Below, piece after piece: positions 1,022 through 56,151 of a stretch of DNA of 64,000 nucleotides; position 1 is the first letter of the stretch; each line of letters starts with the position of its first letter. The notes under the pieces were generated by a model, which worked only from the letters and a program-made list of their open reading frames with translations, did not search any database and was not told where the DNA came from. Source of the DNA: Intrasporangium sp. GTDB taxonomy: Bacteria; Actinomycetota; Actinomycetes; Actinomycetales; Dermatophilaceae. Location: the NCBI RefSeq assembly GCF_030452765.1, contig NZ_JAKDLO010000001.1, positions 25,273 through 89,272 of the forward strand, read 5' to 3'. The translations under genes and the position numbers were made by a program.

Positions 1022-2275
1022 CTAGATCGCGCCGACAGCGGCGCTCTCGGGCTCCTCAACCCGGTGCCGGAGCCCGCGGACCGAGGGCGAGGCGAGCGCG
1101 GCGAGGGAGACAGCGGCATACACGACGGCGCTGACGACGAGAAGCGTCTCGTGGTCGACAACGGCAGCGAGCCAGCCGTAGAGGAAGGTCCCGACCGGGA
1201 TCGCGACGAACGAGCCGAGCGCGTCGTAGCTCGACACCCGCGAGAGGACCGAGACCGGCACGTGCTCGTGCAGGGCGGTGCTCCAGCCGACACCGAAGAC
1301 CTCGATGGCGGCGCCGCCGACGAAGAAGGCGATCGCGAGCGGGAGGATCGCCGGAGCCAGGCCGAGCATGGCGAGCGGGACCGCGACGACGGCGGTCGCG
1401 ATCATCCCGGCGCGCAGCGGATGGGTGAGACGCAGCCGCATCATGAGCAGCGTCATCAGGACGGTGCCGGCCGCCTCCGCGGACAGGACGACGCCCCAGC
1501 CGGCCTCGCCGAGCGCCGAGGTCGTGGCGGCGACGAGCGGACCCATCACGCCGATGACGCCGACGTGGATGGCGTTCGTGATGCCGAAGGTGAGCACGAC
1601 GACCCAGAGCCACTGCCGGGAGGTGAACTCGCTCCACCCCTCGCGCAGCTCGCGGATCATCGAGCTCCCTTCCTGCCTGGGCTCCTGCCGGACGAGGCGG
1701 ACCCGGGTGAGCGCGAGAACCGCGATGACGTAGGTGAACGCGTTGGCGGCCAGGGCCCAGCCGGGGCCGACCCCGACGACGAGCAGGCCGGCAACGGCCG
1801 GCCCGAGGATGCCGAGGCTGCTCCGGCTGAAGGACAGCAGCGCGTTCGCCTGCTGCAGGCGGGGCCGGTCGACGACGAGCGGGACGATACCCATCATCGC
1901 GGGCATGGTGAAGGCAGAGACGGCACCGTTGAGGCCCTCGATGATGGTGATCTGCAGCAGCGTCGCGTGCCCGGAGATGATCAGCGCGGCCGCCACGGCC
2001 TGGGTCAGGCAGGTGAGCAGGTGGGCGACCTGCAGGACCGCGATCCGCGAGAACCGGTCGGAGACGACGCCACCGAGCAGCAGGCAGGCGACCATCGCGA
2101 TGGTCCGCACACCGAGCACCTGACCGAGCGCCATCGCGGACTGGTCGATGTGCAGGACGGCGAAGGCGAGGGCGACGGGGGCCATCGCCGAGCCGGCCAT
2201 CGAGACGCTGCGTGCCGCGAAGAACCAGGCGAACCGGCGGTCGGACAGGACGCCGAGGGAGGCCGTGAGTCTCAT
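1022..2275 (-). CDS. MFS transporter (probable efflux/H+ antiporter type)
   Basis: 417 aa with about 12 hydrophobic segments and an MFS motif-A-like [10 protein letters not shown]; start overlaps the upstream regulator stop (ATGA). Confidence 0.85.
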
Positions 2276-2814
2276 CGGGTCCCCCTGCTCGCGGTCTTCA
2301 ACGGGAACGCGGCGACGGACAGGTTGGTCCGGACCGTGCCCGGAGTCCGCGGCTGCTGCGCCTGCTCGTGGACGAGCCGGCTGGCCCGCTCGAGCAGGTC
2401 GAACGCCTCCTGCCAGACCTCGGGTCGCAGCCAGAGGTCGGCGTCGGTGAACAGCTGCCGCCCCGGCTCGCGGTCGGCGTACCGGGTGGAGATCGCGGCC
2501 GCGAGCGCCGAGACGGAGGCCTGCCGGTCCGCCTCGCTCGCGGTGCCAGCGGCATCATCTGCCGCACTGTCCCACTGGTGGCGGTACTTCTTCGCGCGGC
2601 CGCCGCGCACCCGCTCCTCGCCGGCGAGGACGATCAGGCCGGCCTCGAGCAGGAAGCGCAGGTGGTAGGACGCGTTCGCCTGGGTGATCCCCAGCTCGCG
2701 GGCCACCTCGGCTGCGCTGAGCTCTGCACCGGTCAGCAGGGACAGCATCTGCAGCCGCAACGGGTGCGCGGTCGCCCGGAGCACGTTGCGTCGGTCCTTA
2801 CCTTCCAAAGACAT
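2272..2814 (-). CDS. ArsR/SmtB-family winged-helix transcriptional regulator
   Basis: LRATAHPLRLQMLSLL...SAAEVARELGITQANASYHLRFLLEAGLI; start moved to ATG 2814 because a -35/-10 pair sits just upstream. Confidence 0.85.
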   Translation of the reverse strand: MSLEGKDRRNVLRATAHPLRLQMLSLLTGAELSAAEVARELGITQANASYHLRFLLEAGLIVLAGEERVRGGRAKKYRHQWDSAADDAAGTASEADRQASVSALAAAISTRYADREPGRQLFTDADLWLRPEVWQEAFDLLERASRLVHEQAQQPRTPGTVRTNLSVAAFPLKTASRGTR

Positions 2815-2922: not shown

Positions 2923-4188
2923 TCAGTCGGGCAGGCGCTGCACCTCGAAGGTGAACCCGTGCCGGCGAAGCCGGTCGACCAGCAGGGCTCCCATCGCGGT
3001 CGCCGGGGTCAGGACTCCCGTACGAGCGGGCAGCCCATCGTCCTGGGCCAGGCAGAGGGCGCTCTCACCGAGCATGATGGCGGTGCCGTCGTAGCCTGGG
3101 TCGTACGGTGCTGCGACGGTCGTCCGGTAGCGAGCGCCCGTGCTGGTCGTGGCCCGGATCTCCATCCGGAAGCGCCCGGCCGCCCGCTGGGCGGCGCTCG
3201 GGCCGGTGCCCGGCTTGGGGAGGACGCGGTCGAGGAGAGCCCGCGTCGGTGCGTAGGACAGCCCCGCCAGCACCCCACCGAGGCCGACTGCCATGCCTGC
3301 CGCGAGCAGGGGCGAGAGAGGGCCCGACCCGAAGTCGACGACCTCGCGGTAGCGGAAGTCCCGGCCGTAGGACCAGTCGGTCAGGGTGTTCGACAGCCGC
3401 ACGATCCTGGCGTTGAACGAGGCCATCACGAAGGGGCCGGTCCATCGTCCGGTCGTGGCATCGCGCTCGATCGGCACCAGCCTGCTCAGCGAACCACGAA
3501 CCCCACGGGCCCGGTGCCCGCCGGACGGCGGTTCGTCGTCGCGTCGTGGGCTGAGGCCGTACGGGTCGCTGATCGTCCGCCGGGCCGCCGGGTCGGAGCG
3601 GGCCCTGATCGACTGCGCCCGTCCGGACGCGATGGTGCCCCCGGACAGCCCGCCTCGGAGGGACCGGACAGCGAGCACGGTGTCGGTCAGGGTCCCGGCG
3701 CCGTCGGCGGCAGCCTGCTGCGCCGTGACGAGTACCCCGAGGTCGGACGGTATGGAGTCGAAGCCGCACGCGTGCACGATCCGCGCGCCGGTCTCGGCCG
3801 CCCGGGCCGCGACGTGGTCGAGGGACCAGCGCACGAGCAGGACCTCGCCGGTCAGGTCGGCGTAGTGGGTGCCCATGTCGGCGCAGGCGGCGAGCACGTC
3901 ACGGCCGTGGACGGCATACGGGCCGACCGTCGTCGCGAGCACGTGCGTGCGAGCCGCGAGGTCGCGCAAGCCGGCGGGATCCTCGGCGTCGACCGCGACC
4001 AGCGGCCAGGACGCGGCGGCCGGACCGAGCCCCGCGCGCACGGCCTCGAGCCTGGTCAGGCTGCGACCCGCGAGGGCGATCCTGGCCCCGGTCTCGTCCG
4101 GTGTCGCCTGCCGGGCCAGGTGCCCGGCCGTGATCGCGCCGACGAACCCCGTCGCCCCGAACAGCACGATGTCGAGCTCTCGCGTCAT
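2923..4188 (-). CDS. Saccharopine dehydrogenase-like NAD(P)-binding oxidoreductase (trans-acting enoyl reductase-like)
   Basis: DIVLFGATGFVG Rossmann motif, TTVGPY..HG, HYADLTGE, HACGFDSIPSDLG. Confidence 0.85.
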   Translation of the reverse strand: MTRELDIVLFGATGFVGAITAGHLARQATPDETGARIALAGRSLTRLEAVRAGLGPAAASWPLVAVDAEDPAGLRDLAARTHVLATTVGPYAVHGRDVLAACADMGTHYADLTGEVLLVRWSLDHVAARAAETGARIVHACGFDSIPSDLGVLVTAQQAAADGAGTLTDTVLAVRSLRGGLSGGTIASGRAQSIRARSDPAARRTISDPYGLSPRRDDEPPSGGHRARGVRGSLSRLVPIERDATTGRWTGPFVMASFNARIVRLSNTLTDWSYGRDFRYREVVDFGSGPLSPLLAAGMAVGLGGVLAGLSYAPTRALLDRVLPKPGTGPSAAQRAAGRFRMEIRATTSTGARYRTTVAAPYDPGYDGTAIMLGESALCLAQDDGLPARTGVLTPATAMGALLVDRLRRHGFTFEVQRLPD

Positions 4189-4224: not shown

Positions 4225-6267
4225 CTACCAGTCGACCGGGTCGACGCGCACGGTGACGAGCTCGGACTCCTTACGCGCCGACCGAAGCGCCTTGAGGGCG
4301 ATGAGGGCACGACCCAGCTCTGCCGTGCCGGTCACGCCCGTGCGCACGAGCGCATGCCATTCATCACCGGCCCGCAGGCTCTCCCGCGACGTCCGGGACC
4401 CGGCAGGTGCCGGCATCGGGCCGAGCAGCTGTGCCCCCGTGGGGAGGTCGAGCTGGCTCAACGCCTCGCCCAGCGCCCGTCGGGTGCCCGACAGCCGGGC
4501 CATCCGAACCGCCGGTGGCAGGCCCAGCTCCCGACGATCGGCGAGCTCTCGGGCCGCCAGCCAACCGGGATCCCACCGGACGAGGGCCTCGACCGCCGGC
4601 AGGCCCGCGCCTTCGGCAACCCCACACAGCACGACGGCTCGGCCGGGGCGGACCAGAGCCGCGGCAGCGGCCCAGCGTCGGAACGACTCGCTCGCCGCGT
4701 CGAGGACGGGCAGCTCGAGACTCGCCCACGCGTCGAGGAGCAGGACCGCGGCATACCCCGCGCGGGCCACCGGCTCGGCTCCCGGGGTCGCGATGACCAG
4801 CGCCGGCTCGTCGGGCACAGCGCCGAGCACCTCGCCCGACCCCGACGTGACGACGGGCGCGCCGGGGAAGGCACGACCGATCTCCTCTGCGGTTCGGCGC
4901 GCCCCCGTCACCGTCGACCTCAGCCTCCGGGACCCGCACTCGCGGCACTCGAACCGCCCCGGAGGCAGGGCGCTGCCGCACCACCGGCAGGCCGGCTGCT
5001 GCCCCGGCCCACCGAGCGCCATCGGGCCATGGCAGCAGACGCACCGCACCGGGGCGCGGCACTCGGCGCACGTCAGCGCCGGCAGGTAGCCGCGGCGCGG
5101 CACCTGGACGAGGACCGGCCCGTCGTGCAGGGCGTCCTTGGCGGCCCGCCAGGCCCGCGACGGCAGGTGCGCTCGAGCCGCCACGCCGTCGCGCTCCTCG
5201 TCGCTGCCCTCACCTGCGACACCGACCCGCGGAGCGGCCGCGCGCACGGCGGGCGTCGGCGCCTCGACGGCGACGAAGGCGCCCGACTCGATCCTGCCCT
5301 GGAGCTCCAGGCTGCGGGCGAGGCCTCCGGCGAGCAGGGCGGCGCGGGTGTGGCGCGCCCGTGTCTCGAGCACGACGCCGACGTGATGGTAGGGCGCCCG
5401 CGGCTCGACGAGCAGGTCGTCACCGTCGTCCCACCACGCGACGAGGCCGAGGTCGTGCACCGGCGCGAAGGCGGCCGCCCGGGTGCCGATGGCGACCGGC
5501 ACGTGCCCCCTGCGCGCCTTGAGCCACGCGGTGTAGCGCGCCTGCGGTCCCTGGTCGGCCGTGAGCCTGACATGCCGACCGGGCCCGAGGACCCCGGTGA
5601 TCGCCACATCGAGTCGGTCGACGTCCCGGTGGTCCGGCACGACGAGCACCGCGCCGCGGCCGCCGGCGACAGCCGCCGCCGCGGCCGTGGCGAACGCATC
5701 CGGCCAGTCCTGACCGTCGGGCCGGCCGGGCAGGGCCGTCCATGCCGCGGCCGGGCCCTCGCCCGCAGCCACCCGTCGCAGCCAGGCCGGGCCCGCCGGG
5801 TAGGCGGCCCACGGCCCTGGCTGCAGCGCCGGACCGTTCGCGGGAGTTGACGGAGCAGGTGGAGGCGGGGGGTCAAGCGGCAGGGCGCGCTCGGCGGTGG
5901 CGTGCCGCTTGGGGATGGCCAGGCGCAGCACGTCGCTCAACGTGCCGGCATACCGGTCGGCGACGGCCCGGCACAGTGTCAGCAGCTCGGGGGTCAGGAC
6001 CGGCTCGGGGCTCACCACGCGGCGCAGCGGTGACAGGCGCCCGCCGTGGGTGGGCTCGGCGTATCGCTCGACGACGAACCCGTCGAGGTCGCGCCCCGCG
6101 AAGCGCACCCGCACCCGCGCGCCGGGCACGGCCGAGGCGAGCAGGTCGTCAGGGACGAGGTACTCGAAGCTGCGGTCGAGGTGGGCGAGCGGCGTGTCGA
6201 CGACCACGGCCGCCACGGGCAGCGCCGCGCAGCCCTCGCCGCGCGTCACCTCGCCCCGCTCGCTCAC
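4225..6267 (-). CDS. priA: Primosomal protein N' (PriA, actinobacterial type)
   Basis: N-terminal LAHLDRSFEY..VRVRFAGR 3'-DNA-binding domain, Cys clusters CAEC/CVCC/CRWC/CREC, IGTRAAAFAP; conserved position after metK. No clear Walker A motif seen. Confidence 0.92.
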   Translation of the reverse strand: MSERGEVTRGEGCAALPVAAVVVDTPLAHLDRSFEYLVPDDLLASAVPGARVRVRFAGRDLDGFVVERYAEPTHGGRLSPLRRVVSPEPVLTPELLTLCRAVADRYAGTLSDVLRLAIPKRHATAERALPLDPPPPPAPSTPANGPALQPGPWAAYPAGPAWLRRVAAGEGPAAAWTALPGRPDGQDWPDAFATAAAAAVAGGRGAVLVVPDHRDVDRLDVAITGVLGPGRHVRLTADQGPQARYTAWLKARRGHVPVAIGTRAAAFAPVHDLGLVAWWDDGDDLLVEPRAPYHHVGVVLETRARHTRAALLAGGLARSLELQGRIESGAFVAVEAPTPAVRAAAPRVGVAGEGSDEERDGVAARAHLPSRAWRAAKDALHDGPVLVQVPRRGYLPALTCAECRAPVRCVCCHGPMALGGPGQQPACRWCGSALPPGRFECRECGSRRLRSTVTGARRTAEEIGRAFPGAPVVTSGSGEVLGAVPDEPALVIATPGAEPVARAGYAAVLLLDAWASLELPVLDAASESFRRWAAAAALVRPGRAVVLCGVAEGAGLPAVEALVRWDPGWLAARELADRRELGLPPAVRMARLSGTRRALGEALSQLDLPTGAQLLGPMPAPAGSRTSRESLRAGDEWHALVRTGVTGTAELGRALIALKALRSARKESELVTVRVDPVDW

Positions 6268-7594: not shown

Positions 7595-8860
7595 TCAGGT
7601 GAGCAGTTCCTCGACGACGTCCAGCACGGCGGCGGCGACCACGTCCTTGCTCGCCGGGCCGACCGAGACGACCTCGGGCACGTCGCGGCGCAGCAGGTGC
7701 ACGGTGTTGTCGTCGCGCCCGAACGCCTTGTCGCGGCCGACCTCGTTGACGACCTGCAGGTCGCTGCCCTTCCTGGCGAACTTGGCCACAGCGTGGTCCA
7801 TGACCGAGCCGGTGGCATCGCCGGTCTCGGCGGCGAAGCTGACGATGACAGGACGCCTCGCGCCGTCCCGGCGCGCGACCAGGCCCCTGACGATGTCGGG
7901 GTTCTCGACGAGATCGAGCCGCAGCCCGGCATCGGGGTCGGCGCCCTTCTTGATCTTGCTCGCGCTCGCCGAGACCGGACGGAAGTCGGCGGGGGCGGCA
8001 GCCATGATCACCGCGTCCGCGTCGCGGGCCGCGGTCTCGACCGCGTCCTTCAGCTCCAGCGTGGTCTCGACGCGGACGACGGTGACCCCGGGTGGGGTCG
8101 GCAGGCTGACGTTGGCCGCGACCAGAACGACCCGCGCTCCCCGCTGGGAGGCGACCTCTGCGATGGCGAGGCCCTGCTTGCCCGAGGACCGGTTGCCGAG
8201 GTAGCGCACCGGGTCGAGCGGCTCTCGGGTGCCCCCGGCGGAGACGACGACGGTGCGGCCGGTGAGGCTCTTGTGCCCGTATGCCGCCATGCTTGCTCCC
8301 GGCGCATCCCCGGTCTGCGCCGGGTCGGCTACCCCCTCGCCGACGGCGCCGAGCGCGGCGGCATACACCTGCTCGGGCTCCGGCAGGCGCCCCTTGCCCG
8401 AGTCGGCGCCGGTCAGACGGCCCTCGGCCGGGTCGATGACGTGCGCTCCGCGCCGGCGCAGGGTCTCGACGTTGGCCTGCGTCGCGGGGTGCTCCCACAT
8501 CTCGGTGTGCATCGCCGGGGCGAAGACGACCGGGCAGCGCGCGGTCAGCAGCGTGTTGGTCAGCAGGTCGTCGGCGATGCCCGCGGCAGCCTTGGCCAGC
8601 AGGTCGGCTGTCGCCGGGACGACGACGACGAGATCGGCGCTCTGGCCGATCCGCACGTGCGGCACCTGGTGGACGTCGGTCCATACGTCGGTGCTCACCG
8701 GGCGGCCGGAGAGCGCGGCCCAGGTCGGCGCGCCGACGAAGCGCAGCGCCGCCTCGGTGGGCACGACGGTCACCTCGTGCCCGGTCTCGGTGAACCGGCG
8801 CACGAGCGAGCAGGCCTTGTAGGCCGCGATCCCACCACCGACGCCGACGACGACGCGCAT
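7595..8860 (-). CDS. coaBC: Bifunctional phosphopantothenoylcysteine decarboxylase/ligase
   Basis: [38 protein letters not shown]; interdomain linker looks longer than usual. Confidence 0.97.
8279..8366. repeat. Branched palindrome bounded by inverted GTATGCCGCC arms, inside coaBC
   Basis: Outer stem GTATGCCGCC/GGCGGCATAC (8279-8288/8357-8366); inner stems CCCGGCGCA/TGCGCCGGG (8298-8306/8316-8324) and GTCGGC/GCCGAC (8324-8329/8339-8344). Confidence 0.75.
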
Positions 8861-10297: not shown

Positions 10298-10419
10298 AGC
10301 GGTTCGCTCCTCGGTCTCGACAGACGTTGCTGCCGAACCTAGCGATTCGGTCGAGGCAGTGGCAACGCGAGTGGGCTCGACGCGCAGCGGGAGTGCCGGT
10401 ATGCCGCCGGGCCGGCCCC

Positions 10420-11262
10420 TCAGGCCCGCAGGCCGTCGGCGACCCGGCGGGCCGCGTCGGCCAGGCCGACCACATCGGGGCCGGCTCCCAGGACCGCCCG
10501 GCTGGATGCGACGAGGACCTGAGGGCGGGCCGCCCCGAAGACCAGGTCTAGATCGGCCACGGTGCCGCCCTGGGCTCCGAAGCCGGGAGCGAGCACCGGG
10601 GTGGCCGCCGTGACGAGGTCGAGACCCAGGCGGTCGACGGCGTCGCCGACGGTGGCGCCGACGACCAGGCCGATGTCCCCCAGCTCGCCCCGCTCCCGGG
10701 CGAGGCTGTTGTCGACGGTGGCCCCCTCGACGATCGAGGCAGCGACGCTACGGCCACCCAGGACCGCGTGCTGCACCGAGGCTCCGTCGGGGTTCGAGGT
10801 CAGCGCGAGCACGAACAGGCCGCGGCCGTGCTGCTGCGCCACGTCGATGGCCGGGCGCAGCGACTCGTAGCCGAGGTAGGGACTGACCGTGAGGGCGTCC
10901 GGGGGCGAGACCGCCTCGGGCCCGAGGTAGGCCGCTGCGTACCCAGCCATCGTCGAGCCGATGTCGCCACGTTTGGCGTCGAGGATCGTCAGCGTGCTCG
11001 CCCATAGGAGGTCGGCGAGCCCCCGCTCCTGCACCCCGCTCCCCCGGCTGCCGAAGACCGCGAAGAAGGCCGACTGTGGCTTGACCGCGGCGACGGCTCC
11101 CGCGAACGCCTCGACGCATGTGAGCGCGAAGCGCTCGAGGCCGGTGACGTCATACGGCAGCCCCCACGCCTCGAGCAGCCGGCGCTGCGGGTCGATCCCC
11201 ACGCAGAGCGGCCCGTGATGGTCCATCGCCCGGCGCAGCCGGGTGCCGAAGCCAGTGGTCAC
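10420..11262 (-). CDS. pyrF: Orotidine-5'-phosphate decarboxylase
   Basis: LCVGIDP, AVKPQ, DAKRGDIGST, LAPGFGAQGG; last gene of the pyr operon. Confidence 0.93.
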   Translation of the reverse strand: MTTGFGTRLRRAMDHHGPLCVGIDPQRRLLEAWGLPYDVTGLERFALTCVEAFAGAVAAVKPQSAFFAVFGSRGSGVQERGLADLLWASTLTILDAKRGDIGSTMAGYAAAYLGPEAVSPPDALTVSPYLGYESLRPAIDVAQQHGRGLFVLALTSNPDGASVQHAVLGGRSVAASIVEGATVDNSLARERGELGDIGLVVGATVGDAVDRLGLDLVTAATPVLAPGFGAQGGTVADLDLVFGAARPQVLVASSRAVLGAGPDVVGLADAARRVADGLRA

Positions 11263-14612: not shown

Positions 14613-14613
<1 letters not shown>

Positions 14614-15782
14614 CAGGCGCTCGCTTCCTGCCGTTGGAGCATCTCCACGAAACGGTCGAACAGGTATGCCGCGTCATGCGGCCCGGCGGCAGCCTCGGGG
14701 TGGTACTGGACCGAGTAGGCCGGCGCGTCGAGGCACTCGAGCCCCTCGACGACATCGTCGTTGAGGCAGACGTGCGAGACCCGCACCCGCCCGTATGGGG
14801 TCTCGCGCGGTTCGAAGGAGGGGGCCCCGGGCCACTCGATCGCAAACCCGTGGTTGTGAGCGGTGACCTCGACCTTGCCGGTGGCACGGTCCATGACCGG
14901 CTGGTTGATGCCGCGGTGGCCGTACTTGAGCTTGTACGTGCCGAATCCGAGCGCCCGGCCGAGCAGCTGGTTGCCGAAGCAGATGCCGAAGAACGGGATC
15001 CGCCGGTCCAGCACCTCGCGGAGCAGGGCCACCTCGCGATCGGCCGTCGACGGGTCGCCCGGGCCGTTCGAGAAGAACACGCCGTCAGGGCCGTGCTCGC
15101 CGACGGCCAGTACGTCATCGATCGTCGCGGTGCACGGCAGGACGTGCACCTCGATGCCACGCTGGGTCAGCCGCTGCGGGGTCATCGCCTTGATCCCGAG
15201 GTCGATCGCCGCGACGGTGAAGCGCTTCCCCCCCACGGCGGGCACCACGTACGGTGCCGGTGTCGTGACCTCCTCGGCGAGGGCTGCACCGGCCATCCGG
15301 GGTGCCTCTCGCACCACCTCGACGAGCTCGTCGAGCGAACGGTCCGCATCCGGGCCGCTGAAGATCCCGACCCGCATCGCGCCGCGCTCGCGAAGGTGCC
15401 GGGTCAGGGCGCGTGTGTCGATCCCGCAGATGCCGACGACCTGCTGGGCGCGCAGCTCGTCCTCGAGGTCGCCGGTGGCCCGCCAGCTCGACGGGCGGAG
15501 CGCGGGTTCGCGCACGACATACCCGGCGACCCAGAAGCGCTGCGACTCGGGGTCCTCGGTGTTGATGCCCGTGTTGCCGATGTGCGGCGCGGTCATGACG
15601 ACCACCTGCCGGTGGTAGCTCGGGTCGGTCAGGGTCTCCTGGTAGCCGGTCATCCCGGTCGAGAAGACTGCCTCGCCGACCGTCTCACCGACCGCCCCGT
15701 AGGAGGACCCACGGAAGTCTCGGCCGTCCTCCAGGACGAGGATGGCCGGCTCACGGTGCCGGCTGGGGAGGTTGAGGGTCAC
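14613..15782 (-). CDS. carA: Carbamoyl-phosphate synthase small subunit
   Basis: [35 protein letters not shown]; GTG start overlaps the pyrC stop. Confidence 0.97.
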
Positions 15783-19107: not shown

Positions 19108-19566
19108 TCACGCCTCCATGAGAGTTGCCGCCAGTGTTCCGCCCAGCTCGAACGCGGCCTCCCGAACGGACTTGTCCACAGGCCCGGTCACCAGCAGCGG
19201 CTGCGCCGCCATGACCCAGCCGAGCGCCTGCGCGATCGACTCGATGCCCCGGCGGGCCCCTTCGGTGTCGTTGTTGCCGTGCACCCAGTAGCCATACGGC
19301 ATCCCCGTCTTCGCTTCGAGGGTCGGGTAGTAGACCGTGTCGAAGAAGTGCTTGAGGGCACCGGACATGTAGCCGATGTTGGCCGGTGTCCCGAGCAGCA
19401 CGCCGTCGGCCGCGAGCAGGTCGCTCGCGGTGGCCGACAGCGCCGGCCGCACCTCCACCTCGACGCCTTCGATGCCCTCGGCGTGGGTCCCGGAGACGGC
19501 GGCCTCGAGGATCTCCTGCACGGCCGGGGACGGCGTGTGGTGCACGACGAGGAGGTGGGCGCTCAC
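19108..19566 (-). CDS. Flavodoxin-family (WrbA/FMN reductase-like fold) protein
   Basis: LLVVHHTPS, ADGVLLGTPANIGYMSGALKHFFD, HGNNDTEGA. Confidence 0.82.
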   Translation of the reverse strand: MSAHLLVVHHTPSPAVQEILEAAVSGTHAEGIEGVEVEVRPALSATASDLLAADGVLLGTPANIGYMSGALKHFFDTVYYPTLEAKTGMPYGYWVHGNNDTEGARRGIESIAQALGWVMAAQPLLVTGPVDKSVREAAFELGGTLAATLMEA

Positions 19567-19669
19567 CCGCCCAACCTATGCCGTATGGCGCCGAGCCGCG
19601 CCCAGCCCCGTGTGGTCCTCCCGGTGTCATCGGGAGCAAGCCCAGCGGCATACGGCTACCGTCGTGGGG

Positions 19670-20104
19670 ATGGACCAGCGACTCAACTTCATCACACTCG
19701 CAGTCGCCGACCCGGCTGCATCGCGGCGGTTCTACGCGGACGGGCTCGGGTGGGAGCCGGCCTTCGAGGCGCCCGGGGAGGTCGTCTTCTTCCGGATGGC
19801 ACCGACGATCGTGCTGTCCTTGTGGCGTGCCGACGACTTCGAGGCCGAGGCCGGACCGCTCGACAGGGAGCCGGGCAGGGCACCGATCACCTTGTCGCAC
19901 AACGTCCCTACGCCTGAGCAGGTCGACGCGGTGATCGCCGACGCCGTGAGAGCGGGAGCCCGGCTCGTGGCAGCGGCGAAGGACCGCGACTGGGGTGGCC
20001 GGTCCGGCTACTTCGCCGACCTCGACGGCTACCGCTGGGAGGTCGCGTACAACCCCGGGCCACTCGACAAGGACCTCATGCGGGCGGCGGGCCTGCTGCC
20101 CTGA
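19670..20104 (+). CDS. VOC/glyoxalase-family protein
   Basis: MDQRLNFITLAVADPAASRRFYADGLGW..WGGRSGYFADLDGYRWEVAYNP. Confidence 0.88.
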   Translation: MDQRLNFITLAVADPAASRRFYADGLGWEPAFEAPGEVVFFRMAPTIVLSLWRADDFEAEAGPLDREPGRAPITLSHNVPTPEQVDAVIADAVRAGARLVAAAKDRDWGGRSGYFADLDGYRWEVAYNPGPLDKDLMRAAGLLP

Positions 20105-20111
20105 GCAGTCG

Positions 20112-21505: not shown

Positions 21506-21585
21506 ACCCCCATTTGAACGGGCCGGCGCCAGCAGGGCAAGAGCGGCGGGGCGAGGCCGGCGAGGTCCGCGACGGCGCGGCCCGG

Positions 21586-44847: not shown

Positions 44848-44922
44848 GAAGGTGTCCTTCCGGGGTGGTGAGTGGTTGGTGGTATGCCGCCGAGCTCGGC
44901 GAGTGGGCACCAGCGCCTCATC

Positions 44923-49500: not shown

Positions 49501-49630
49501 GGCGCGCGGCAGCCTGGTAGGCCGGTCCCGCCGCCGCGGCCGCGACCGCGATGACGGCCACGAGCAGGATGAGGACGGTCAGGCCGCGCCGCGCCGCGAG
49601 ACCGCGCCACAGTAGTCCGATCCGGTTCAT
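46589..49630 (-). CDS. Large FtsX-like ABC permease (two permease halves)
   Basis: About 1014 aa; N-terminal TM, large extracytoplasmic domains, motifs VALARLRG and RRRHELAALIAGG typical of FtsX permeases. Confidence 0.85.
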   Translation of the reverse strand: MNRIGLLWRGLAARRGLTVLILLVAVIAVAAAAAGPAYQAAARHSILADDLHAATPAGQLVEVTSRGGVGVLDQLTGLVDQELHSAPGADLLDTRIRGQEISVVPRVGQTSLMAWRDDLCGHLRLVQGRCPTAAGEVLVSSALAQLNHVVVEQHLHLLGVNRVVGIYEPLDPESRYWGGRGYFPQEGFFVNRPGPEPVDAIFTVPDTFQAVASVQANSVIDLLLDLDAATPGRVDDLRETLTALTSLAAGAGAFVNTNIPTVLDAATASADTLAIPVILITAQLLVLVWLLLFLAITDAAEARGPDVALARLRGLGGTRTLWFGLGESFVLLLLALPLGIAVGWAGMLLLAQVALREGTPVTVGWVSVAAAVIAVSGGLCAALLGARRTLRRSVIEQWRRPSLSTRRGWVLDVAVLVATAAALADLWATGAVGKSTVHPLALLVPGLIGLAVAVLVSRLLPWVCRALFGLTRRRGGIGPFLAVRQVVRRPAGMRTLIVLSAALSLATFAISAWTVNRANIADVAATRTGAAAVLTVRAPADQDLAAIVTRLDPAGTQAMAVLDFIDTANQARQTLAVQSDRLARIAFWRSDFSTTSLAQLAKQLHPPTPAPIRLEGDSLRVSLRDVRLSRPQLLTANLKLPTGFAETPLAVGVVKPGTSSVTVQLPGCPCVLRSLTLSDTTAVSPALVPTSFSGSLTITGIDERGKAGWRPVAAGLDSGDRWSWAGTFGTGSTGSAKAAPGGLHLSFTVPPNTTIGWAAPSWPVPMPALVTPSVAGLPRDPSLTVAGLDGAALPIEPVAVVPVPGAPDNGVIIDQAAALQAAFDSRFSTQQQVWLAPGAVATFPDRLRKAGVQVTDTATTADADRSLRQQGPALALSLFLADAAAAALLAAAGGLSGLYLSARRRRHELAALIAGGARRSELRRSLLLEQALTLGLGILSGVGSGLLAVWLALRAVPQFVTPPSAPPLHYTPDPMALTAALVGIAVIVAVVAVLGTVTLVAGTRTELLREEAT

Positions 49631-50850
49631 GTGCCACTCCCGGTGGGGGTGACGGCCGTGCCGGACAGCCACGCCACCGCGACGCGCTTCGGGTCGTGGT
49701 GGGCCTGATCGACATGATCGTCGGAGAGCCGGATGATGCTGCGGTCACCCGTCTGGACGTCGTCGCAGAGCAGGTGGTCGCCCGCCGGGGAGAAGAGGCA
49801 CGACGTGCCGAGGACCTGAGCGGTGATCGTCCGCGCCTTCACCTGGCTCCCCGTCAGCTGCAGGAGCGTCACGCCGCCGTCGTCGAGGTAGGCCACCTGA
49901 CGGCTGTCGTGCGTCCAGACCGGCTCGATGCTGGTGTAGGAGGTGCGGGTGGCTGCGATCGTGCCGGACCGGTCGATGATGACGAGTGCATGTCGCGCCG
50001 ATGCCGCGCTCGTGTTCGGCACGAGCCCGTCGACGGTGAGGACGATGTGCTGCCCGTCGGGAGCCACGAGGGGCCAGACGGCATACGGCTTGCCCTTCGG
50101 CAGCTCGGTGGCACGCACCAGGTCGGCTGTCGTCGCGAGCACCTGGTGCTGGTCCTTCCACCAGCGCAGCTCGACCCGGCTGGTGTCCCGCTCGGTGTAG
50201 GGCCCGAGGTTGACCTCAGTGCCACCCTGCACCGCGACGACAGCGCCGTCCCGGCTCGGGTCGCCAGCCACACCACCAGCGTCACCGCCGAGCTTGTGTG
50301 CCGACCCGCCATCCAGGTCGACGGTCTCGATGCCGCCGAGCATGGAGCTTGCGCCGGTCCCCATCAGGACGAGACGCTTCCCTCCGTCGGCCCAGGGTTG
50401 CGGCACGGCCGTGCTGTCTCCGGTGGCGTCGAGCAGCGGCCGCTCGCGCCCGGCGACGCCGATGTCGACGACCTGGACTCCGCCCACCACGGCGTGCTGC
50501 CCGTCCGGGCTGACCGTGGCGTAGTTCGCCGGGTAGGCCGGCCCCGGCAGCAGCCGGAACCGGGAGCCGTCGGGGGCGGCAGTCGCGAGGCGACCTGACG
50601 AGCTGTCGAAGACCACCAGGTGGCCCGGCAGGTTCAGCGAAGGAGCGACCGTGGTCGCGGTCGCTGTCGGTGTGCCCCGGCCCAGCCCTCCGAGGACGGC
50701 CCAGAGAACGAGCGCGACGACGGCCACGCCTGCCACCACCGCGCCCGTGATCAACGCCACCGAGCGCCGCGACCGTGGCGGCGGCTCGAGGTCGGTCGCT
50801 GGAAAGCCGGGCGTGGGTACGACTCCTTCGGTCCGGGGCGACCCCTCCAT
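49627..50850 (-). CDS. Membrane-anchored TolB/WD40-like beta-propeller protein
   Basis: One N-terminal TM helix, then repeated blades (VSPDGQH, PWADGGKRL, VAPDGQH, PVWTHDSRQVAY, LFSPAGDHL); translationally coupled to the permease. Confidence 0.7.
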   Translation of the reverse strand: MEGSPRTEGVVPTPGFPATDLEPPPRSRRSVALITGAVVAGVAVVALVLWAVLGGLGRGTPTATATTVAPSLNLPGHLVVFDSSSGRLATAAPDGSRFRLLPGPAYPANYATVSPDGQHAVVGGVQVVDIGVAGRERPLLDATGDSTAVPQPWADGGKRLVLMGTGASSMLGGIETVDLDGGSAHKLGGDAGGVAGDPSRDGAVVAVQGGTEVNLGPYTERDTSRVELRWWKDQHQVLATTADLVRATELPKGKPYAVWPLVAPDGQHIVLTVDGLVPNTSAASARHALVIIDRSGTIAATRTSYTSIEPVWTHDSRQVAYLDDGGVTLLQLTGSQVKARTITAQVLGTSCLFSPAGDHLLCDDVQTGDRSIIRLSDDHVDQAHHDPKRVAVAWLSGTAVTPTGSGT

Positions 50851-50890: not shown

Positions 50891-51559
50891 TCAGCCGCGC
50901 TGGGACGGGTGCGCCGGCCACGGCGCGTCGGCCGGTCGCAGCGTCGCCCAGCCCAGCGAGCGGGAGGTCGCGGCGGCGAGGACCCCGATGATGGCGGACG
51001 CGTTGTGGACCTGACCGGCGAGGACTGCTCGCACGGCGTCCTCGAGCGGCACCCAGAGGGGACGGATGCCGACCTCCTCTCCGGTCCGTTCGTGCTCGGC
51101 GCCGTCGGGCACGTCGGTCAGGTCGCGGGCGAGGAAGATGCGGGCCGCCTCGGGGAAGGCGCCCGGGGAGGCGAAGCTGTCGGCGAGCACGTCCCATCGC
51201 GACGCCCGCAGGTCGACCTCCTCGGCGAGCTCGCGGGCGGCGGCCTGCCACGGCGGCTCGCCGGAGATGTCGAGCAGGCCGGCGGGCAGCTCCCACAGGT
51301 GGCCGCCGGCCGGGTGGCGGTACTGCCGGATCATCAGGATGTGCTCGACGCCCTCGACCGGGCGCAGCGCGACGATGACGACCGCGCCGGGGTGCTCGAT
51401 GTAGTCGCGCTTCACGACACCGCCCGCGCCGAGGTCGACGGTGTCGCGTCGGACGTCGAAGATCATCCCCTCGAACATGACCGTCGAGTCGAGTACCGGC
51501 AGCGGGTCGAACTCGTCCGTCAGGTCGCTCACCTGCCCGAGGGGCGCCGTCAGGCTCAC
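50891..51559 (-). CDS. nudF: NUDIX hydrolase (ADP-ribose pyrophosphatase-like)
   Basis: [26 protein letters not shown]; directly after pyrG. Confidence 0.9.
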
Positions 51560-53277
51560 TCCGGGTCGGCCCCGGCACCGACGCCGACCGGGGTGGCCTC
51601 GGCCCGACTGGTCCGCTCGACCTCGACGAGCCGCTGGGCGCGCTGTTGTTCGAGCGCGGCACCGATCAGGCCAGCGAAGAGCGGGTGGGCGCGGTTGGGG
51701 CGCGAGCGGAACTCGGGGTGCGCCTGGGTCGCGACGTAGTAGGGGTGCACGTCACGGGGCAGCTCGACGAACTCGACGAGCGTGCCGTCCGGGGACGTGC
51801 CGGAGACGACGAGCCCGGCCAGCTCGAGCCGGTCGCGGTAGGCGTTGTTGACTTCGTAACGGTGCCGGTGGCGCTCGTCGACGTGCTCGGCGGCATACGT
51901 CTGCTGCACGACGCTGCCGGTCTTGAGCCGGGCCGGGTAGAGCCCGAGGCGCATCGTGCCGCCGAGGTCGCCGGCGCCCTCGACGAACGCCTTCTGCTCC
52001 TGCATCGTCGCGATGACGGGCGTGGCACTGTCGGGGTCGAACTCGGTCGAGGACGCGTCCGGCTCGCCGAGGACGGTACGGGCGTACTCGATGACCATGC
52101 ACTGCAGGCCGAGGCAGATGCCGAGCGTGGGCACCTGTCGCTCACGGGCCCAGGTCAGCGCGCCGAGCTTGCCCTCGATGCCCCGGATCCCGAACCCGCC
52201 CGGGACGAGGACCGCGTCGACCCCCGCGAGGGCCTTCTGCGCCCCCGCCGGGCTCTGGCAGTCGTCGCTCGCGACCCAGCGGATCCGCACCTTCGCGTCG
52301 TGGTGGAAGCCGCCGGCCCGCAGCGCCTCGGTCACCGACAGGTAGGCGTCGGGCAGGTCGACGTACTTGCCGACGAGGGCGACCTCGACCTCGTGCTCGG
52401 GGTCGTGGACGCGCTGGAGCAGACGGTCCCACTCGGTCCAGTCGACGTCGCGGAAGGCGAGGCCGAGCCGCCGGATGACGTGGGCGTCGAACCGCTCGGC
52501 GTGCAGCACCCGCGGGATGTCGTAGATGCTCGGCGCGTCGACGCAGGCGGCGACCGCTTCGACCTCGACGTCGCACATGAGCGAGATCTTGCGTTTGATG
52601 CCGTCGGGGATCTCGCGGTCCGCGCGCAGCACGAGCCCGTCCGGCTGCAGGCCCACCTGACGCAGCGCTGCGACGGAGTGCTGGGTCGGCTTCGTCTTCA
52701 GCTCGCCGCTGGGCGCGAGGTAGGGCACGAGAGAGACGTGCAGGAAGAACGAGTTGTCCCGGCCGATGAGGTGGCGCACCTGTCGGGCTGCCTCCAGGAA
52801 CGGCAGCGACTCGATGTCGCCGACGGTGCCGCCGATCTCGGTGATGATCAGGTCCGGTGCGTCGGGGCCGCCGGTCGCCAGCGCCCGCATCCGCGCGACG
52901 ATCTCGTTGGTGATGTGCGGGATGACCTGCACGGTGTCGCCGAGGTACTCGCCGCGCCGCTCGCGGGCGATGACGGTGTTGTAGATCTGGCCGGTCGTGA
53001 CGTTGGCGGAGCCGACGAGGTTCACGTCGAGGAAACGCTCGTAGTGCCCGATGTCGAGGTCGGTCTCGGCTCCGTCGTTCGTGACGAAGACCTCGCCGTG
53101 CTGGAACGGGTTCATCGTGCCCGGGTCGACGTTGATGTAGGGGTCGAGCTTCTGCATCGTGACCTTGAGGCCACGCGACCGCAGCAGGTGTCCGAGGCTC
53201 GAGGCGGTCAGGCCCTTGCCGAGCGAGGAGGCCACGCCCCCGGTCACAAAGATGTGCTTCGTCGTCGTGTCGGCCAC
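51556..53277 (-). CDS. pyrG: CTP synthase
   Basis: [53 protein letters not shown]. Confidence 0.98.
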
Positions 53278-53293
53278 GGGCTTGCAGTCTACG

Positions 53294-54406
53294 TCATGGG
53301 CCGGTGAGCGACTCGTAGCGCCGGGCCCACTGGCGTGCCTCCTGCTCGGGGGTGGCCCAGGTGCGGGCGCGCGCTCGTGCGCGGGCGGCGAGGTCGGCTC
53401 GTCGTGACGGGTCGCGCAACAGGTCGTCCACGGCGGTGGCGGTGGCTGTGGGGTCGGCGGGTGGCACGAGGACTCCTGCGTCGCCGACCAGGCCGGGCAG
53501 CCCGCCGACCGCGGGGACGACGACCGGCACACCGGCCGCCAGCGCCTCCTGCACGACGAGCGCCCGCGCCTCCCATCGGCTCGTCAGGACCAGGACGGTC
53601 GCCGCCCGCAGCCACGCCTCGACGTCCCCGCGCGCCCCCACGAACGTCAGCGGTATGCCGCCCACCTCGCTCTCGAGCCGGCGGCGCAGCTGCGCGTCGC
53701 CGCCTCCCACGACGACCCAGGTGGCCGGTAGGGTCGAGGCGCGGGCCGCGGCGACGAGCGTGGCGAGGTCCTTCTGCGGGGCGATCCGGGACACCGTGAG
53801 GACGAGGGGCCGGTCGGCGGGTGCGTCGATCCCGGCCGACGCGAGCAGTGCCTGCCGCAAGCGGGCGCCCTCATCGGCGTCGGGTGCGTCGGGTGCTTCG
53901 GAAGCCGCCAGGATGGCGGCGGCGCGGGGTGAGGCCACCGTCGCCAGCTCGCTCCGGCGGGCGCCGAGCCGCAGGGCCGTCGCGACGAGGTCGTCGCTCG
54001 CTCCGGCGACGAGGTCGGCTCGGCGCAGGGCCCAGCGGATCGCCCTGGCACCGAGCCCGTCCGCGGGCACCTCGTTGTGCAGGGAGACGACCAGGCGGGG
54101 CCGCGGCCTGGCGCGCAGCACCGCCACCGCGGCGACGAGCGCCGCCTGCTGCCCGTGGGCGTGCACGACCTCGACGGTGCAGGCGAGCCGCATGATGCGG
54201 TGCCAGTCGAGCGGGGCTCGGGCCACCGCCTCGGCGGAGCCGAAGGGCCACAGGGCGTGCGCGTCGGTCCAGCCGAAGTGGCGCACGCTCGATCGGTCGC
54301 TGACGATCACCACCTCGTGGCCGAGACTTCTCAGGTCGTGGCTGAGTCGGCCGACATGGCTGCCGATCCCGCCGGCCGACCGGCCGAGCAGCTGCAGGAT
54401 CCTCAT
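53294..54406 (-). CDS. Glycosyltransferase family 4 (GT-B)
   Basis: MRILQLL...[37 protein letters not shown]. Confidence 0.9.
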
Positions 54407-56151
54407 CGTGTCTCCCTGGGTGGAGGGTCGGTGCTCGTGGCACCGTTGACCGTCGGATCGGTGCTCGTGGCATCGGTGGTCGTGACATCGGAGCGCGTGG
54501 CATCGGTGGCCGTGCGGCGTCGTAGCAGCCGGCGCAGCATGCTGCGGTCGGTGGCGGCCCCGGCCGCGGCGAAGAGCACGGTCGCGAGCAGGCCCGACGC
54601 GACGGTCGCCAGGGCAGCGGCGGGTAGGTCGGCCGGGCGCCAGGTCGCGCCCAGCCACCATCCGGCGAGCGCCGCCACGGCGGTGGCGAGCAGGGCCGCG
54701 CCGAGTGGGCGCGCCGGTGGGCGCAGGGCGGCCGCACCCCAGGCCCGTGCGGCCAGCACGGTCAGGCAGGCCGCTGCGGCCAGCAGCCCGATGCTCGAGC
54801 CGGCACCGATGGCGCTCAGGGTGTCGTCGGGCCCCGGTGCATCGCGCAGCACGATCAGGGGTAGGGCGAGTGTCAGCAGCCATCCGCTGCCGGCGGCCGC
54901 TCCGGCCGTGCGGGCATGCCCGCGCACGTAGAGGGCGCGGGTCAGCAGGCCGATCGCGCCGAGGCCGAGGATCCCCGGGGCGAACGAGACCATCGTCGTC
55001 GGGATCGCGGCCAGGGCCGCAGCGCCCGACCCCGCCGACCGTCCGGCGTCGAGGGCGCTGAAGAACGCACCGACCGGCTGGGCGACGGCGACGAGCAGGG
55101 CGACCCCGTAGAGGCCGGCCACGAGGGTGCCGAGCCAGGCCCCGCGCAGCGTGCGGGCCGCGGAGTCGTCCTCGCGGCTCGTCGAGGCCCCGGACGGGCC
55201 GGCCGCCTGGCTGGCCAGGGTCGGGAAGGCTGCCGTCGCGAGCGGGACGGCCAGGACGGCATACGGGAGCAGGGCGACGGCCTGAACGTAGGTGAACACG
55301 TTGAGCGTGCCGGGCCCCCCGCGGTCGTTCGCGAGGCGGATGACGACCAGCGTCGCGAGCTGTTGCCCGGCCAGTGCGAGCAGCCCGGCGACGGCCAACC
55401 GCCGGACCCGCGCCGACGCGGTGTCGGGGAAGCGGAAGGTCGGCCGGAGCCGGATGCCGGCTCTTCGCAGGGGTACGAGCAGGGGCAGGCTGAGGGCGAC
55501 GACCCCGAGGGTCGTGCCGATCCCGAGCACGAGGACGGCGGCGCCCGGAATGGCGGAAAGGGGCGCGGCAGGATCGGGCACGAGGGCGCCGTAGAGCAGG
55601 TACGTGGCGATGACGACGACACTGGACAGGAGCGGCGCGAGGGCCGCGGCCACGAAGCGACGGTGCGACTGGAGGACTCCGGCCAGGACGATCCCGACGC
55701 CGTACAGCGGTATCTGGATCGCGAAGATCCGCAGCAGGTCGACGCCGAGGCCCAGCTCACCGGAGCACCCCTGGGCGGGCAGGAGCACGCCGGCGATGGG
55801 GCCGGCGGCGGCCACGACGACGAGCGCCAGCGGGACGAGCCCGGCGAGCGCCCAGGTCAGCAGGGCCGAGGCGGTGCGGTCGGCGGCATCCGGCTCCCCG
55901 CGGCCCAGCGCCGCGGAGACGAGCGGCACGACGACCGCGGCCAGGACACCCCCGGCGGCGATCTCGTAGAGGACGTTCGGGACGGTGTTGACGCTCTGGT
56001 AGACCGTGCCGACGCAGGTGGCCCCGACGGAGTGCGAGAAGGCGAACCAGCGGCCGAAGCCGACGAGCCGCGCGGCGATGGTGATGCCCGCGATGGAGCC
56101 GGCCGCGACGGCGATGCCCCGCCCGGTCCGGCTCATCCCGGTCCGGTTCAC
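54403..56151 (-). CDS. MurJ/MviN-like lipid-linked flippase (no cytoplasmic kinase-like extension)
   Basis: ARLVGFGR, YQSVNTVPNVLYEIAAGG, LQSHRRF..AALAPLLSS, RALY; about 14 TM segments; alternative start ATG 56136. Confidence 0.85.
   Translation of the reverse strand: MNRTGMSRTGRGIAVAAGSIAGITIAARLVGFGRWFAFSHSVGATCVGTVYQSVNTVPNVLYEIAAGGVLAAVVVPLVSAALGRGEPDAADRTASALLTWALAGLVPLALVVVAAAGPIAGVLLPAQGCSGELGLGVDLLRIFAIQIPLYGVGIVLAGVLQSHRRFVAAALAPLLSSVVVIATYLLYGALVPDPAAPLSAIPGAAVLVLGIGTTLGVVALSLPLLVPLRRAGIRLRPTFRFPDTASARVRRLAVAGLLALAGQQLATLVVIRLANDRGGPGTLNVFTYVQAVALLPYAVLAVPLATAAFPTLASQAAGPSGASTSREDDSAARTLRGAWLGTLVAGLYGVALLVAVAQPVGAFFSALDAGRSAGSGAAALAAIPTTMVSFAPGILGLGAIGLLTRALYVRGHARTAGAAAGSGWLLTLALPLIVLRDAPGPDDTLSAIGAGSSIGLLAAAACLTVLAARAWGAAALRPPARPLGAALLATAVAALAGWWLGATWRPADLPAAALATVASGLLATVLFAAAGAATDRSMLRRLLRRRTATDATRSDVTTTDATSTDPTVNGATSTDPPPRETR
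54428..54517 (-). repeat. Three imperfect 30-bp in-frame repeats in the MurJ-like C-terminal tail
   Basis: Units start at 54428, 54458 and 54488 (TCGG(T/A)GC(T/G)CGTGGCA..) and encode TDAT(R/S)(S/T)D repeats. Confidence 0.8.

Follow-up and report, generated by a model that had tools for sequence, protein, structure and literature searches.

A non-palindromic octamer conserved at high density in Dermatophilaceae genomes and its possible role as a genomic self-tag

Why should a short, asymmetric word be written over and over into the genes of a high-GC Gram-positive bacterium, against its codon preference? The question is raised by a 64,000-nt stretch of the genome of Intrasporangium sp. (Dermatophilaceae; contig NZ_JAKDLO010000001.1, positions 25,273 to 89,272), here called the window, which holds 30 exact copies of the octamer GTATGCCG between positions 1114 and 55264, 13 on the plus strand and 17 on the minus strand. 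The word differs from its own reverse complement, CGGCATAC, and is hence non-palindromic. A preliminary description of the window had taken it for a selected or driven signal of the lineage. Our data indicate that the core of this view holds, since the excess survives codon-level null models and is lineage-specific, genome-wide and conserved, whereas the option of a repetitive extragenic palindromic (REP) element spread by a REP-associated tyrosine transposase (RAYT) fails.

The 30 copies are to be compared with a mean of 0.72 (maximum 4) in 100 dinucleotide-preserving shuffles and with an order-3 Markov expectation of 1.95, which agrees with the earlier count of at least 30 copies (17 and 13) against about 2 expected. 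In the observed/expected ranking of all 8-mers, run within the window, GTATGCCG and words overlapping it come out on top, and unrelated words reach at most about 7-fold. All 30 GTATGCC heptamers in the window continue to the full octamer, as had been stated for GGCATAC/GTATGCC, and the 24 one-mismatch variants of GTATGCCG are found at background level. The extended flank consensus suggested earlier is also recovered, with C at position 9 in 21 of the 30 copies, C (17) or T (9) at position 10, G at position 13 in 17 and C at position 14 in 18.

The 56 window genes called by codon statistics cover 94% of the window, and 53 of them lie on the minus strand. The word is read in them as TAT-GCC (13 copies), GCA-TAC (4), CGG-CAT (2), GGC-ATA (1) and ATG-CCG (one within a gene and one on the start codon at 21500), and eight copies are intergenic, exactly as previously counted. 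Shuffling of synonymous codons within each of the 56 genes gave 2.6 ± 1.5 copies (maximum 7 in 500 shuffles) versus 21 observed in coding sequence, so that the enrichment stays under the codon-shuffled null which the preliminary description had proposed as a check. Of the 30 TAT codons in the window, 13 lie within G|TAT|GCCG. Where the surroundings are G|TAY|GCCG, TAT is used 13 times and TAC twice, compared to 0 and 10 times where they are C|TAY|GCCG. The codon-preferred synonym of GTATGCCG, GTACGCCG, occurs 4 times in the window, in line with its reported rarity, and GTAC as such is not avoided. The use of TAT after G and of TAC after C, together with the excess over the synonymous shuffle, therefore places the signal in the DNA and not in a codon or dipeptide preference.

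The closest CarB proteins to that of the window (88% identity) belong to Intrasporangium, Terrabacter and Humibacillus (Dermatophilaceae/Intrasporangiaceae), whereas look-ups of the exact CarB and EF-P proteins gave no record; the DNA also occurs in sequencing runs labelled 'food metagenome'. The motif was counted in 80 loci centred on carB, each about 23 kb long. Its density in the family is 0.2-1.4 per kb in Intrasporangium, Terrabacter and Humibacillus xanthopallidus (5-15 copies per carB locus) and in Metallococcus, Nostocoides and Ca. Phosphoribacter, which together with related activated-sludge metagenome-assembled genomes (MAGs) have 17-33 copies per locus. I. calvum is a genome of low density, and MAG OH_HDB_167 is motif-free. 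Phycicoccus jejuensis, Janibacter anophelis, Humibacillus sp. DSM 29435 (L011) and MAG L009 have 0-1 copies, and loci of equal GC outside the family 0-2; outgroups are at 0-0.04 per kb, and the three nested lineages, Janibacter plus Phycicoccus, L011, and L009, are at the same level. Per 100 kb, the richest sets have 119-155 copies and the window's group has 48, compared to 3.9 for motif-free genomes with the same GC. Scanning of metagenome contigs for the hairpin-type pair GTATGCCGC...GCGGCATAC gave 120 loci, about 45 of which have a GC near 0.70 and, among genes unrelated to those of the window, another 0.5-2 copies per kb. The motif is genome-wide and not a property of the window region; the enrichment, for which confinement to the window had been considered, is found in related genomes and in unrelated metagenome contigs.

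The word also has lineage variants. The three Flexivirga genomes use a relaxed dialect, GTATGNCG, with all four bases at position 6 and about 38-45 copies per locus (about 1.6-1.9 per kb), and Metallococcus is intermediate between the GTATGCCG state and that of Flexivirga. At flank position 9, T predominates in some lineages and C in others. In a CarB neighbour-joining tree, motif-bearing genomes are spread across the whole sampled family. Since the motif-free genomes are nested among them, the most parsimonious reading is that the word was lost at least three times within the family, and it decays to background in the lineages that lost it.

Comparison of the richest with the motif-free genomes shows that all of the octamer is subject to the force, whichever way it is oriented and whether it lies inside or outside genes. 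The motif occupies 154 of the 196 x-Tyr-Ala-(G..) sites of the richest genomes, which corresponds to about 80% of the synonymously accessible sites, and G-TAC-GCC-G is not seen; for this context, motif-free genomes have 13 TAT and 67 TAC. The Ala codon GCG is replaced by GCC in the richest genomes, and the third base of the preceding codon is G in about 80% of their sites versus 47%. When the word is read from its opposite strand, the Ala codon at (..CG)-Ala-TAC sites is GCA in 132 of 156 cases in the richest genomes versus 13 of 104 in motif-free ones. Tyr-Ala contexts are 1.9 times and Ala-Tyr contexts 2.9 times commoner in the richest than in the motif-free genomes. Codon preference yields to the word (TAT, GCA, ATA), and the amino-acid usage moves in favour of Tyr-Ala and Ala-Tyr. 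GTACGCCG is the sole strongly depleted neighbour word (0.7-1.0 versus 14.9 per 100 kb in motif-free genomes). Most one-off words that keep TAT are raised merely 2-10-fold, as expected for decay products or for a graded drive, and this resembles the situation described by Bakkali (2007, PMC1939737).

The alignment of 14 genomes of the window's group contains 33 aligned motif sites, two of which are common to 13 genomes and 15 private; L011 has a synonym at every site. Motif-rich genomes carry GTATGCCG where motif-free relatives have GTACGCCG, GTAGGCCG or GTAGGCGG. Retention between genome pairs is 64% for GTATGCCG. An average 8-mer window is retained at 33%, words of similar composition at 7-40%, and near-cognate words with the same rare codon (TAT) at 3-4%. 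The word is actively maintained and conserved beyond codon expectation.

The placement of the copies was analysed in a sample of 20 motif-rich carB loci with 313 copies, of which 103 are read in sense as xxG-TAT-GCC-G, 100 in antisense as xCG-GCA-TAC and 49 in other frames. Non-coding copies (61 of 313, 19%) lie in about 7% of the sequence, i.e. there is an approximately 3-fold intergenic enrichment. The plus strand has 147 copies and the minus strand 166. Relative to the genes, the orientation is sense 127/antisense 125 in the carB loci and 158/127 in the metagenome loci, in total 285/252, and this balance is seen despite a gene orientation that is more than 90% uniform in the motif-rich carB and metagenome loci; the motif is strand-unbiased and frame-independent, as first described. 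Some intergenic copies, a minority, are inverted pairs in strong hairpins between genes. The window pair at 32940/32967 folds with a free energy (dG) of -42.4 kcal/mol (z -4.9), and the pair at 2842/2856 of locus L074, between convergent genes, with a dG of -40.9 (z -7.1). Inverted pairs at gene ends, which the preliminary description names as typical of uptake sequences, exist, but the window itself has only one of them. In 7 of 8 loci the gaps between copies have a coefficient of variation of 0.69-0.92 versus a random mean of 0.95, so that the spacing is slightly more even than random, which is weak evidence when taken as support. No motif-free islands were found in motif-rich loci, where the sole gaps are carB itself and one stretch of 3.2 kb. 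The orientation of 53 of 56 window genes on the minus strand is in itself unusually uniform for 64 kb of actinobacterial chromosome, and the plus strand of the window is slightly G-rich (G 23654, C 22133).

Viral contigs were scanned with a 9-mer pair pattern, complete at 33 matches, and L324/L321 and L326 were the only motif-rich ones; a scan with the bare 8-mer pair gave, among the matches listed, chance matches at all GC values. Both phages have host-like GC. L324/L338 carries terminase, portal, protease and major head genes and has 7 copies in 11.2 kb, and L326/L381 carries integrase, excisionase-like, ParB-like and tail genes and has 10 copies in 14.8 kb, which gives 0.6-0.7 copies per kb for these two temperate phage contigs. 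A phage 92% identical to L338 has 3 copies, and at the four extra sites of L338 it reads GTACGCCG, ATATGCCG, GTGTGCCG and GGATGCCG; turnover therefore occurs by single substitutions at different positions. The virulent-type Tetrasphaera phage TJE1 (L421, NC_019930; 49.2 kb, GC 0.577, without an annotated integrase) has 2 copies versus 0.6 expected. As the temperate contigs have the word and TJE1 does not, the word appears to build up with long chromosomal residence and not to be needed for replication in the host. TJE1, which shows no motif enrichment, has a low GC despite its high-GC host, and three annotated methyltransferase genes. A Dermatophilaceae plasmid was sought by tblastn with an ATP-binding cassette (ABC) ATPase and none was found.

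What, then, maintains the word? A word that is exact position by position, relaxed at one position in one genus, orientation-free, genome-wide, costly in codons, conserved and lost in sublineages calls for a sequence-specific reader protein and a selection-like force on the whole word. The explanation that we favour, with a probability of roughly 40%, is that GTATGCCG may be a lineage-specific genomic self-tag, produced by an uptake-, transfer- or recombination-linked molecular drive like that of the DNA uptake sequence (DUS) of Neisseriaceae, the uptake signal sequence (USS) of Pasteurellaceae or the highly iterated palindrome HIP1 of cyanobacteria. It is ranked first because uptake-biased transformation followed by recombination is the sole mechanism demonstrated to give such patterns of an arbitrary asymmetric word (DUS, USS; Bakkali 2007, PMC1939737), and HIP1 is now also linked to transformation. 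HIP1, the function of which was long obscure, enhances natural transformation (bioRxiv 10.1101/2024.09.10.611283), and its abundance co-varies with DNA-transfer machinery (bioRxiv 10.64898/2026.06.24.733823). In such a system a putative sequence-specific protein would read GTATGCCG as an exact, non-palindromic 8-bp double-stranded word. This reader would belong to a DNA-import or recombination pathway, the likeliest being natural transformation, where it could act at uptake or in the processing of incoming DNA. Fragments carrying the word would be imported and recombined more often, and alleles that gain the word would then spread by biased gene conversion. The intergenic inverted pairs in hairpins might serve as cheap storage of copies, some of them being perhaps terminator-like structures. 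Micrococcales are capable of natural transformation with Tad-type pili.

Several observations weigh against a self-tag of this kind. Shared flanking haplotypes among the carriers of patchy sites, sought as a sign of transfer tracts, were not found, and patchy sites therefore look like recurrent point changes and not like visible transfer tracts. The enrichment factors are uneven, more than 350-fold for the C-to-T route and about 7-fold at position 1, which suggests mutation-limited kinetics or an extra pressure against GTACGCCG. The saturation of about 80% and the sharpness of the 8-mer seem to exceed what is known of DUS and USS, whose motifs are longer and have graded flanks. Phage contigs at host-like density fit an intracellular process (repair or mutation bias) at least as well as an import bias. 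The window has a gene for a type IV prepilin leader peptidase (Peptidase_A24, 29.4 bits) at 26847-27563 on the minus strand, adjoining the aro operon, and thus type IV filament machinery exists; this adds little to the case for uptake because such genes are widespread in actinobacteria, with or without the motif.

The best placed of the competing explanations, although on balance a doubtful one, is an intracellular upkeep of the HIP1 type, by which a modification/repair system (a methyltransferase together with a mismatch endonuclease of the short-patch type, following Elhai's HIP model) would correct heteroduplexes or replication errors to GTATGCCG, or in which the word would be the site of a nucleoid-structuring protein. 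A drive on the whole octamer with accessible sites near saturation would be in agreement with it, as would the host-like density in temperate phages and the four one-base-variant sites by which the 92%-identical phages differ. The transition route from GTACGCCG to GTATGCCG is the most complete one, and the tolerance at position 6 in Flexivirga (GTATGNCG) is of a kind found with the specificities of DNA-modifying enzymes. The conservation of sites beyond codon expectation is the same argument as was used for HIP1 (PMC5861425), and HIP sequences have been linked to methyltransferases (PMC4390886). The word is, however, not palindromic, unlike every HIP sequence, and neither a methyltransferase nor a Vsr-like gene was seen in the fetched loci, which make up the DNA covered. 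Very-short-patch repair moreover drives one position, from T to C, and not all eight, nor towards A/T, and TJE1 has no enrichment even though its host belongs to a motif-rich genus.

An unlikely alternative is a word for a DNA-translocating machine, either Chi-like (for a helicase-nuclease of the AdnAB/RecBCD type) or one of the 8-mers of FtsK, SpoIIIE and TraB, i.e. the FtsK orienting polar sequence (KOPS, GGGNAGGG), the SpoIIIE recognition sequence (SRS) and the plasmid TraB recognition sequence (TRS), with a function in chromosome handling or in actinomycete double-stranded DNA conjugation. These words are asymmetric, of about 8 bp, and can have one degenerate inner position, which is matched by the exactly 8-bp word with its tolerant position in GTATGNCG; conservation, genome-wide occurrence and presence in temperate phages are also as expected if the word protects or mobilises DNA. 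The known words are nevertheless polarised along replichores or clustered in the plasmid clt locus and few-fold over-represented, whereas GTATGCCG is unpolarised (sense 285, antisense 252) although 53 of 56 window genes share one strand, and its 30-40-fold excess and rare-codon saturation are far above those of Chi or KOPS. TJE1, again, is not enriched.

We consider it very improbable that the word is a passive by-product without a reader, whether of dipeptide or codon-pair preference, of a hot spot of CpG deamination that converts GTACGCCG to GTATGCCG, or of restriction-site avoidance. The strong depletion of GTACGCCG alone among neighbour words and the location of most genic copies in the two frames TAT-GCC and GCA-TAC would be in line with it. 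However, the motif reaches 119-155 per 100 kb compared to a GTACGCCG precursor pool of 14.9 in motif-free genomes, an 8-10-fold excess, and a deamination hot spot alone is therefore insufficient for the density; as positions 1 and 7 are driven too, a simple hot spot was rejected. The enriched peptide contexts, the 19% of intergenic copies, the conservation of the exact word and not of near-cognate TAT words, and the absence of GTAC avoidance in the window also argue against a passive origin. A restriction-modification recognition site, which would be neutral or avoided in the host, does not agree with a word over-represented 30-40-fold.

The core of a mobile repeat, of the REP type or of a miniature inverted-repeat transposable element (MITE), disseminated by a transposase (RAYT), or an artefact of assembly or of adapters (ACGGCATACG being part of the Illumina P7 adapter), could account for the hairpins of some intergenic copies and for literature and sequence matches that are mostly adapter strings, but is effectively refuted by about 80% of copies lying in frame within conserved genes, by flanks that are not conserved beyond about 1 base and are unlike the adapter, and by the same orthologous sites in many independent isolate assemblies, including complete chromosomes. 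Adapter contamination in particular is rejected on the grounds that independent assemblies have orthologous copies, which lie in frame, and classical REP or bacterial interspersed mosaic elements (BIME) are imperfect palindromes of about 20-40 bp that are intergenic only, unlike a word with about 80% of its copies genic and in frame.

The closest parallel systems may be compared with GTATGCCG in turn. The Neisseriaceae DUS (GCCGTCTGAA, with AT- or AG- extension and genus dialects) is likewise short and non-palindromic, has about one copy per kb and lacks strand polarity. It is also enriched between genes, forms inverted hairpin pairs at gene ends and has its genic copies in the cheapest reading frames, and it has lineage variants, comparable here to GTATGNCG in Flexivirga and to the differing 3' flanks (C or T at position 9). 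The differences are a core of 8 bp here versus 10-12 bp, a high-GC Gram-positive host, a saturation of accessible sites that seems stronger here, and the presence of the word in temperate phage contigs. That it has six bases (ATGCCG) in common with AT-DUS is probably a coincidence.

The Pasteurellaceae USS (AAGTGCGGT, with AT-rich flanks) resembles GTATGCCG in being genome-wide and without polarity, in shaping codon and peptide usage, and in its slightly even spacing; one-off forms are modestly over-represented, as under molecular drive (PMC1939737). GTATGCCG differs in having no extended, helically phased flank and in a much sharper drop from perfect to one-mismatch words. Cyanobacterial HIP1 (GCGATCGC) is an octamer as well, with an over-representation of 15-300-fold, it is conserved both inside open reading frames and between them (PMC5861425), and it is a trait at family or phylum level, with exceptional lineages devoid of the word and with alternative words (PMC4390886). 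HIP1 is, on the other hand, palindromic and embedded in known methyltransferase sites, whereas GTATGCCG is asymmetric. The asymmetric 8-mer, the high-GC Gram-positive host, the unusual sharpness and the near saturation thus set GTATGCCG apart from DUS, USS and HIP1.

The preliminary description did not recognise the signal as one described before, and in the searchable literature we did not find GTATGCCG as a discussed sequence either, the matches being one irrelevant whole-word match and 5,176 substring matches that are Illumina P7 adapter or primer strings; a keyword literature search gave no report of such a word in Actinobacteria. CGGCATAC is part of the Illumina P7 adapter (...GACGGCATACGAGAT), so that a search for the word, whether in texts or in sequences, brings up adapter matches in overwhelming number. 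Owing to the same overlap, adapter-trimming tools could clip genuine reads from Dermatophilaceae genomes.

Taken together, the data may be read as the first known case among high-GC Gram-positives of a sequence system conferring uptake or transfer specificity, with an 8-bp self-tag in genus dialects, a putative reader lost at least three times, a drive that fills about 80% of accessible sites and reshapes proteins, and co-resident temperate phages that become tagged; if the reader were neither an uptake receptor nor a methyltransferase, it would represent a new kind of genome-wide sequence drive. We put this forward tentatively, as a proposal whose chances we rate below even. Very few lineages (Neisseriaceae, Pasteurellaceae and cyanobacteria) are known to have hyperabundant short words, and whether selection or selfish molecular drive is responsible has long been debated; the Dermatophilaceae word is an additional, independent and phylogenetically distant case. 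Most useful in this respect are the close relatives with high, medium and zero density and the relaxed dialect, which allow the reader to be searched for by comparative genomics and make drive versus selection testable. The word is also a sharp taxonomic marker for the binning of Dermatophilaceae contigs and prophages, including those of the wastewater phosphate accumulators Nostocoides/Tetrasphaera and Ca. Phosphoribacter, and adding it to constructs may aid the genetic manipulation of Dermatophilaceae.

The individual copies in the window are distributed over genes of very different kinds. Those read as TAT-GCC all lie on the minus strand, and are found in the gene of a transporter of the major facilitator superfamily type at 1022-2275(-) (copy 1114-1121, GTG-TAT-GCC-GCT, V-Y-A-A), in the gene at 2923-4188(-) (3912-3919, CCG-TAT-GCC-GTC; orthologues have GTACGCGG-type synonyms) and twice in priA at 4225-6267(-) (4749-4756, GGG-TAT-GCC-GCG; 5946-5953, CGG-TAT-GCC-GGC). 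The second priA site is common to most relatives, and motif-free relatives have GTACGCCG or ATACGCCG there. The copy at 8359-8366 in coaBC (7595-8860, -; GTG-TAT-GCC-GCC) is present in 13 of the 14 aligned genomes. Further copies of this reading are located in aroQ at 23480-23914(-) (23659-23666, TCG-TAT-GCC-GTC), aroB at 23958-25043(-) (24860-24867, GGG-TAT-GCC-GTC), ruvX at 29633-30136(-) (29881-29888, ACG-TAT-GCC-GCC), an ABC ATPase gene at 34042-35121(-) (34371-34378, ATG-TAT-GCC-GGT), rarA/mgsA at 39345-40739(-) (40682-40689, GGG-TAT-GCC-GCT), a hypothetical gene at 49627-50760(-) (50079-50086, CCG-TAT-GCC-GTC), pyrG at 51556-53277(-) (51891-51898, ACG-TAT-GCC-GCC) and a membrane protein gene at 54403-56184(-) (55257-55264, CCG-TAT-GCC-GTC).

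Antisense copies, on the plus strand, are read by the gene as GCG-GCA-TAC in coaBC (8279-8286), near the end of carA at 14613-15782(-) (14664-14671), in aroC at 25561-26769(-) (25597-25604) and in a shikimate dehydrogenase-like gene at 27587-28387(-) (28319-28326). At the carA site the motif is also found in the richest genomes, and the Terrabacter group has GTAGGCGG or GTAGGCCG. The coaBC copy at 8279 is half of a convergent pair in a linker region; such pairs, 66-81 bp apart in the poorly conserved coaBC linker, are seen in the window (8279-8366) and at the equivalent sites of L001, L004, L016 and L074. The reading CGG-CAT-ACC occurs antisense in an oxidoreductase gene at 20690-21505(-) (21054-21061, R-H-T) and in rarA/mgsA (40003-40010), both copies on the plus strand, and GGC-GGC-ATA-CCG, with the rare Ile codon ATA, is read antisense to a plus-strand copy at 53653-53660 in a glycosyltransferase gene at 53294-54406(-). 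On the minus strand, the copy at 21500-21507 lies over the start codon of the oxidoreductase gene (ATG-CCG), and that at 36247-36254 is read as GGT-ATG-CCG-GCC (G-M-P-A) in a solute-binding protein gene at 36217-37980(-).

The intergenic copies are situated on the plus strand at 2823-2830, between an ArsR-type gene at 2272-2784(-) and the gene at 2923-4188(-), at 10399-10406, 14 nt downstream of the stop codon of pyrF (10420-11262, -), and at 22580-22587 and 22633-22640, 16 and 69 nt upstream of efp (22001-22564, -), where they form a direct pair, the first member of which is kept in several relatives. Another plus-strand copy (44882-44889) is found upstream of aspS, at a distance of about 35 nt from its likely start (GTG at 44847), and a minus-strand copy (19646-19653) lies between the divergent genes 19108-19566(-) and 19664-20104(+). 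The inverted pair GTATGCCGCCC...GGGCGGCATAC (32940-32974, copies 32940/32967) is a hairpin between the stop codon of an opp-type ATPase gene (32997) and the start of alaS (32838).

The gene content of the window is a core actinobacterial block consisting of fmt, def, priA, metK, coaBC, rpoZ, gmk, pyrF, carB, carA, pyrC, pyrB and pyrR, as well as nusB, efp, aroQ, aroB, aroK, aroC, mltG, ruvX, alaS, the opp operon, rarA, aspS, pyrG, recN, nadK and tlyA.

Within one genus the counts can be unlike, with 1 copy per 23 kb in L011 versus 11-12 in H. xanthopallidus (L010/L015). Of the 14 aligned genomes, L011 also diverges most (72% nucleotide identity to the window), and its assignment to Humibacillus may be loose.

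Two other 8-mers in the window are above the dinucleotide expectation, CCTTGGCC (18 versus 1.7) and CTTGCCGA (12 versus 1.8). Their excess is mostly accounted for by higher-order models, CTTGCCGA is frequent in unrelated actinobacterial loci too, and probably both reflect codon or peptide usage. L351 (IMGVR_UViG_2551306695_000003, 21.2 kb, GC 0.50), a prophage-like contig of an isolate genome, has 6 copies of GTATGCCG versus about 0.65 expected at its GC, with flanks unlike those of the Neisseria DUS; this could be chance, or another lineage using the word. The short, AT-rich metagenome contig L221 (Ga0206695_1421846, 1412 bp, GC 0.31) has 11 octamers inside repeat units such as AACGGCATACCATA and GGTATGCCG and is unrelated to the actinobacterial signal. 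When the 80 loci were inspected for other hyperabundant words in other actinobacteria, the sole striking case was a plain tandem repeat and was rejected: at 20431-20670 of L034 (Actinomadura rayongensis), near the carB region, a 16-bp unit (GCAGCACAGGCATGGC, or GCAGCGCAGGCATGGC) is repeated about 15 times in tandem, which gives a false signal of hyperabundance.

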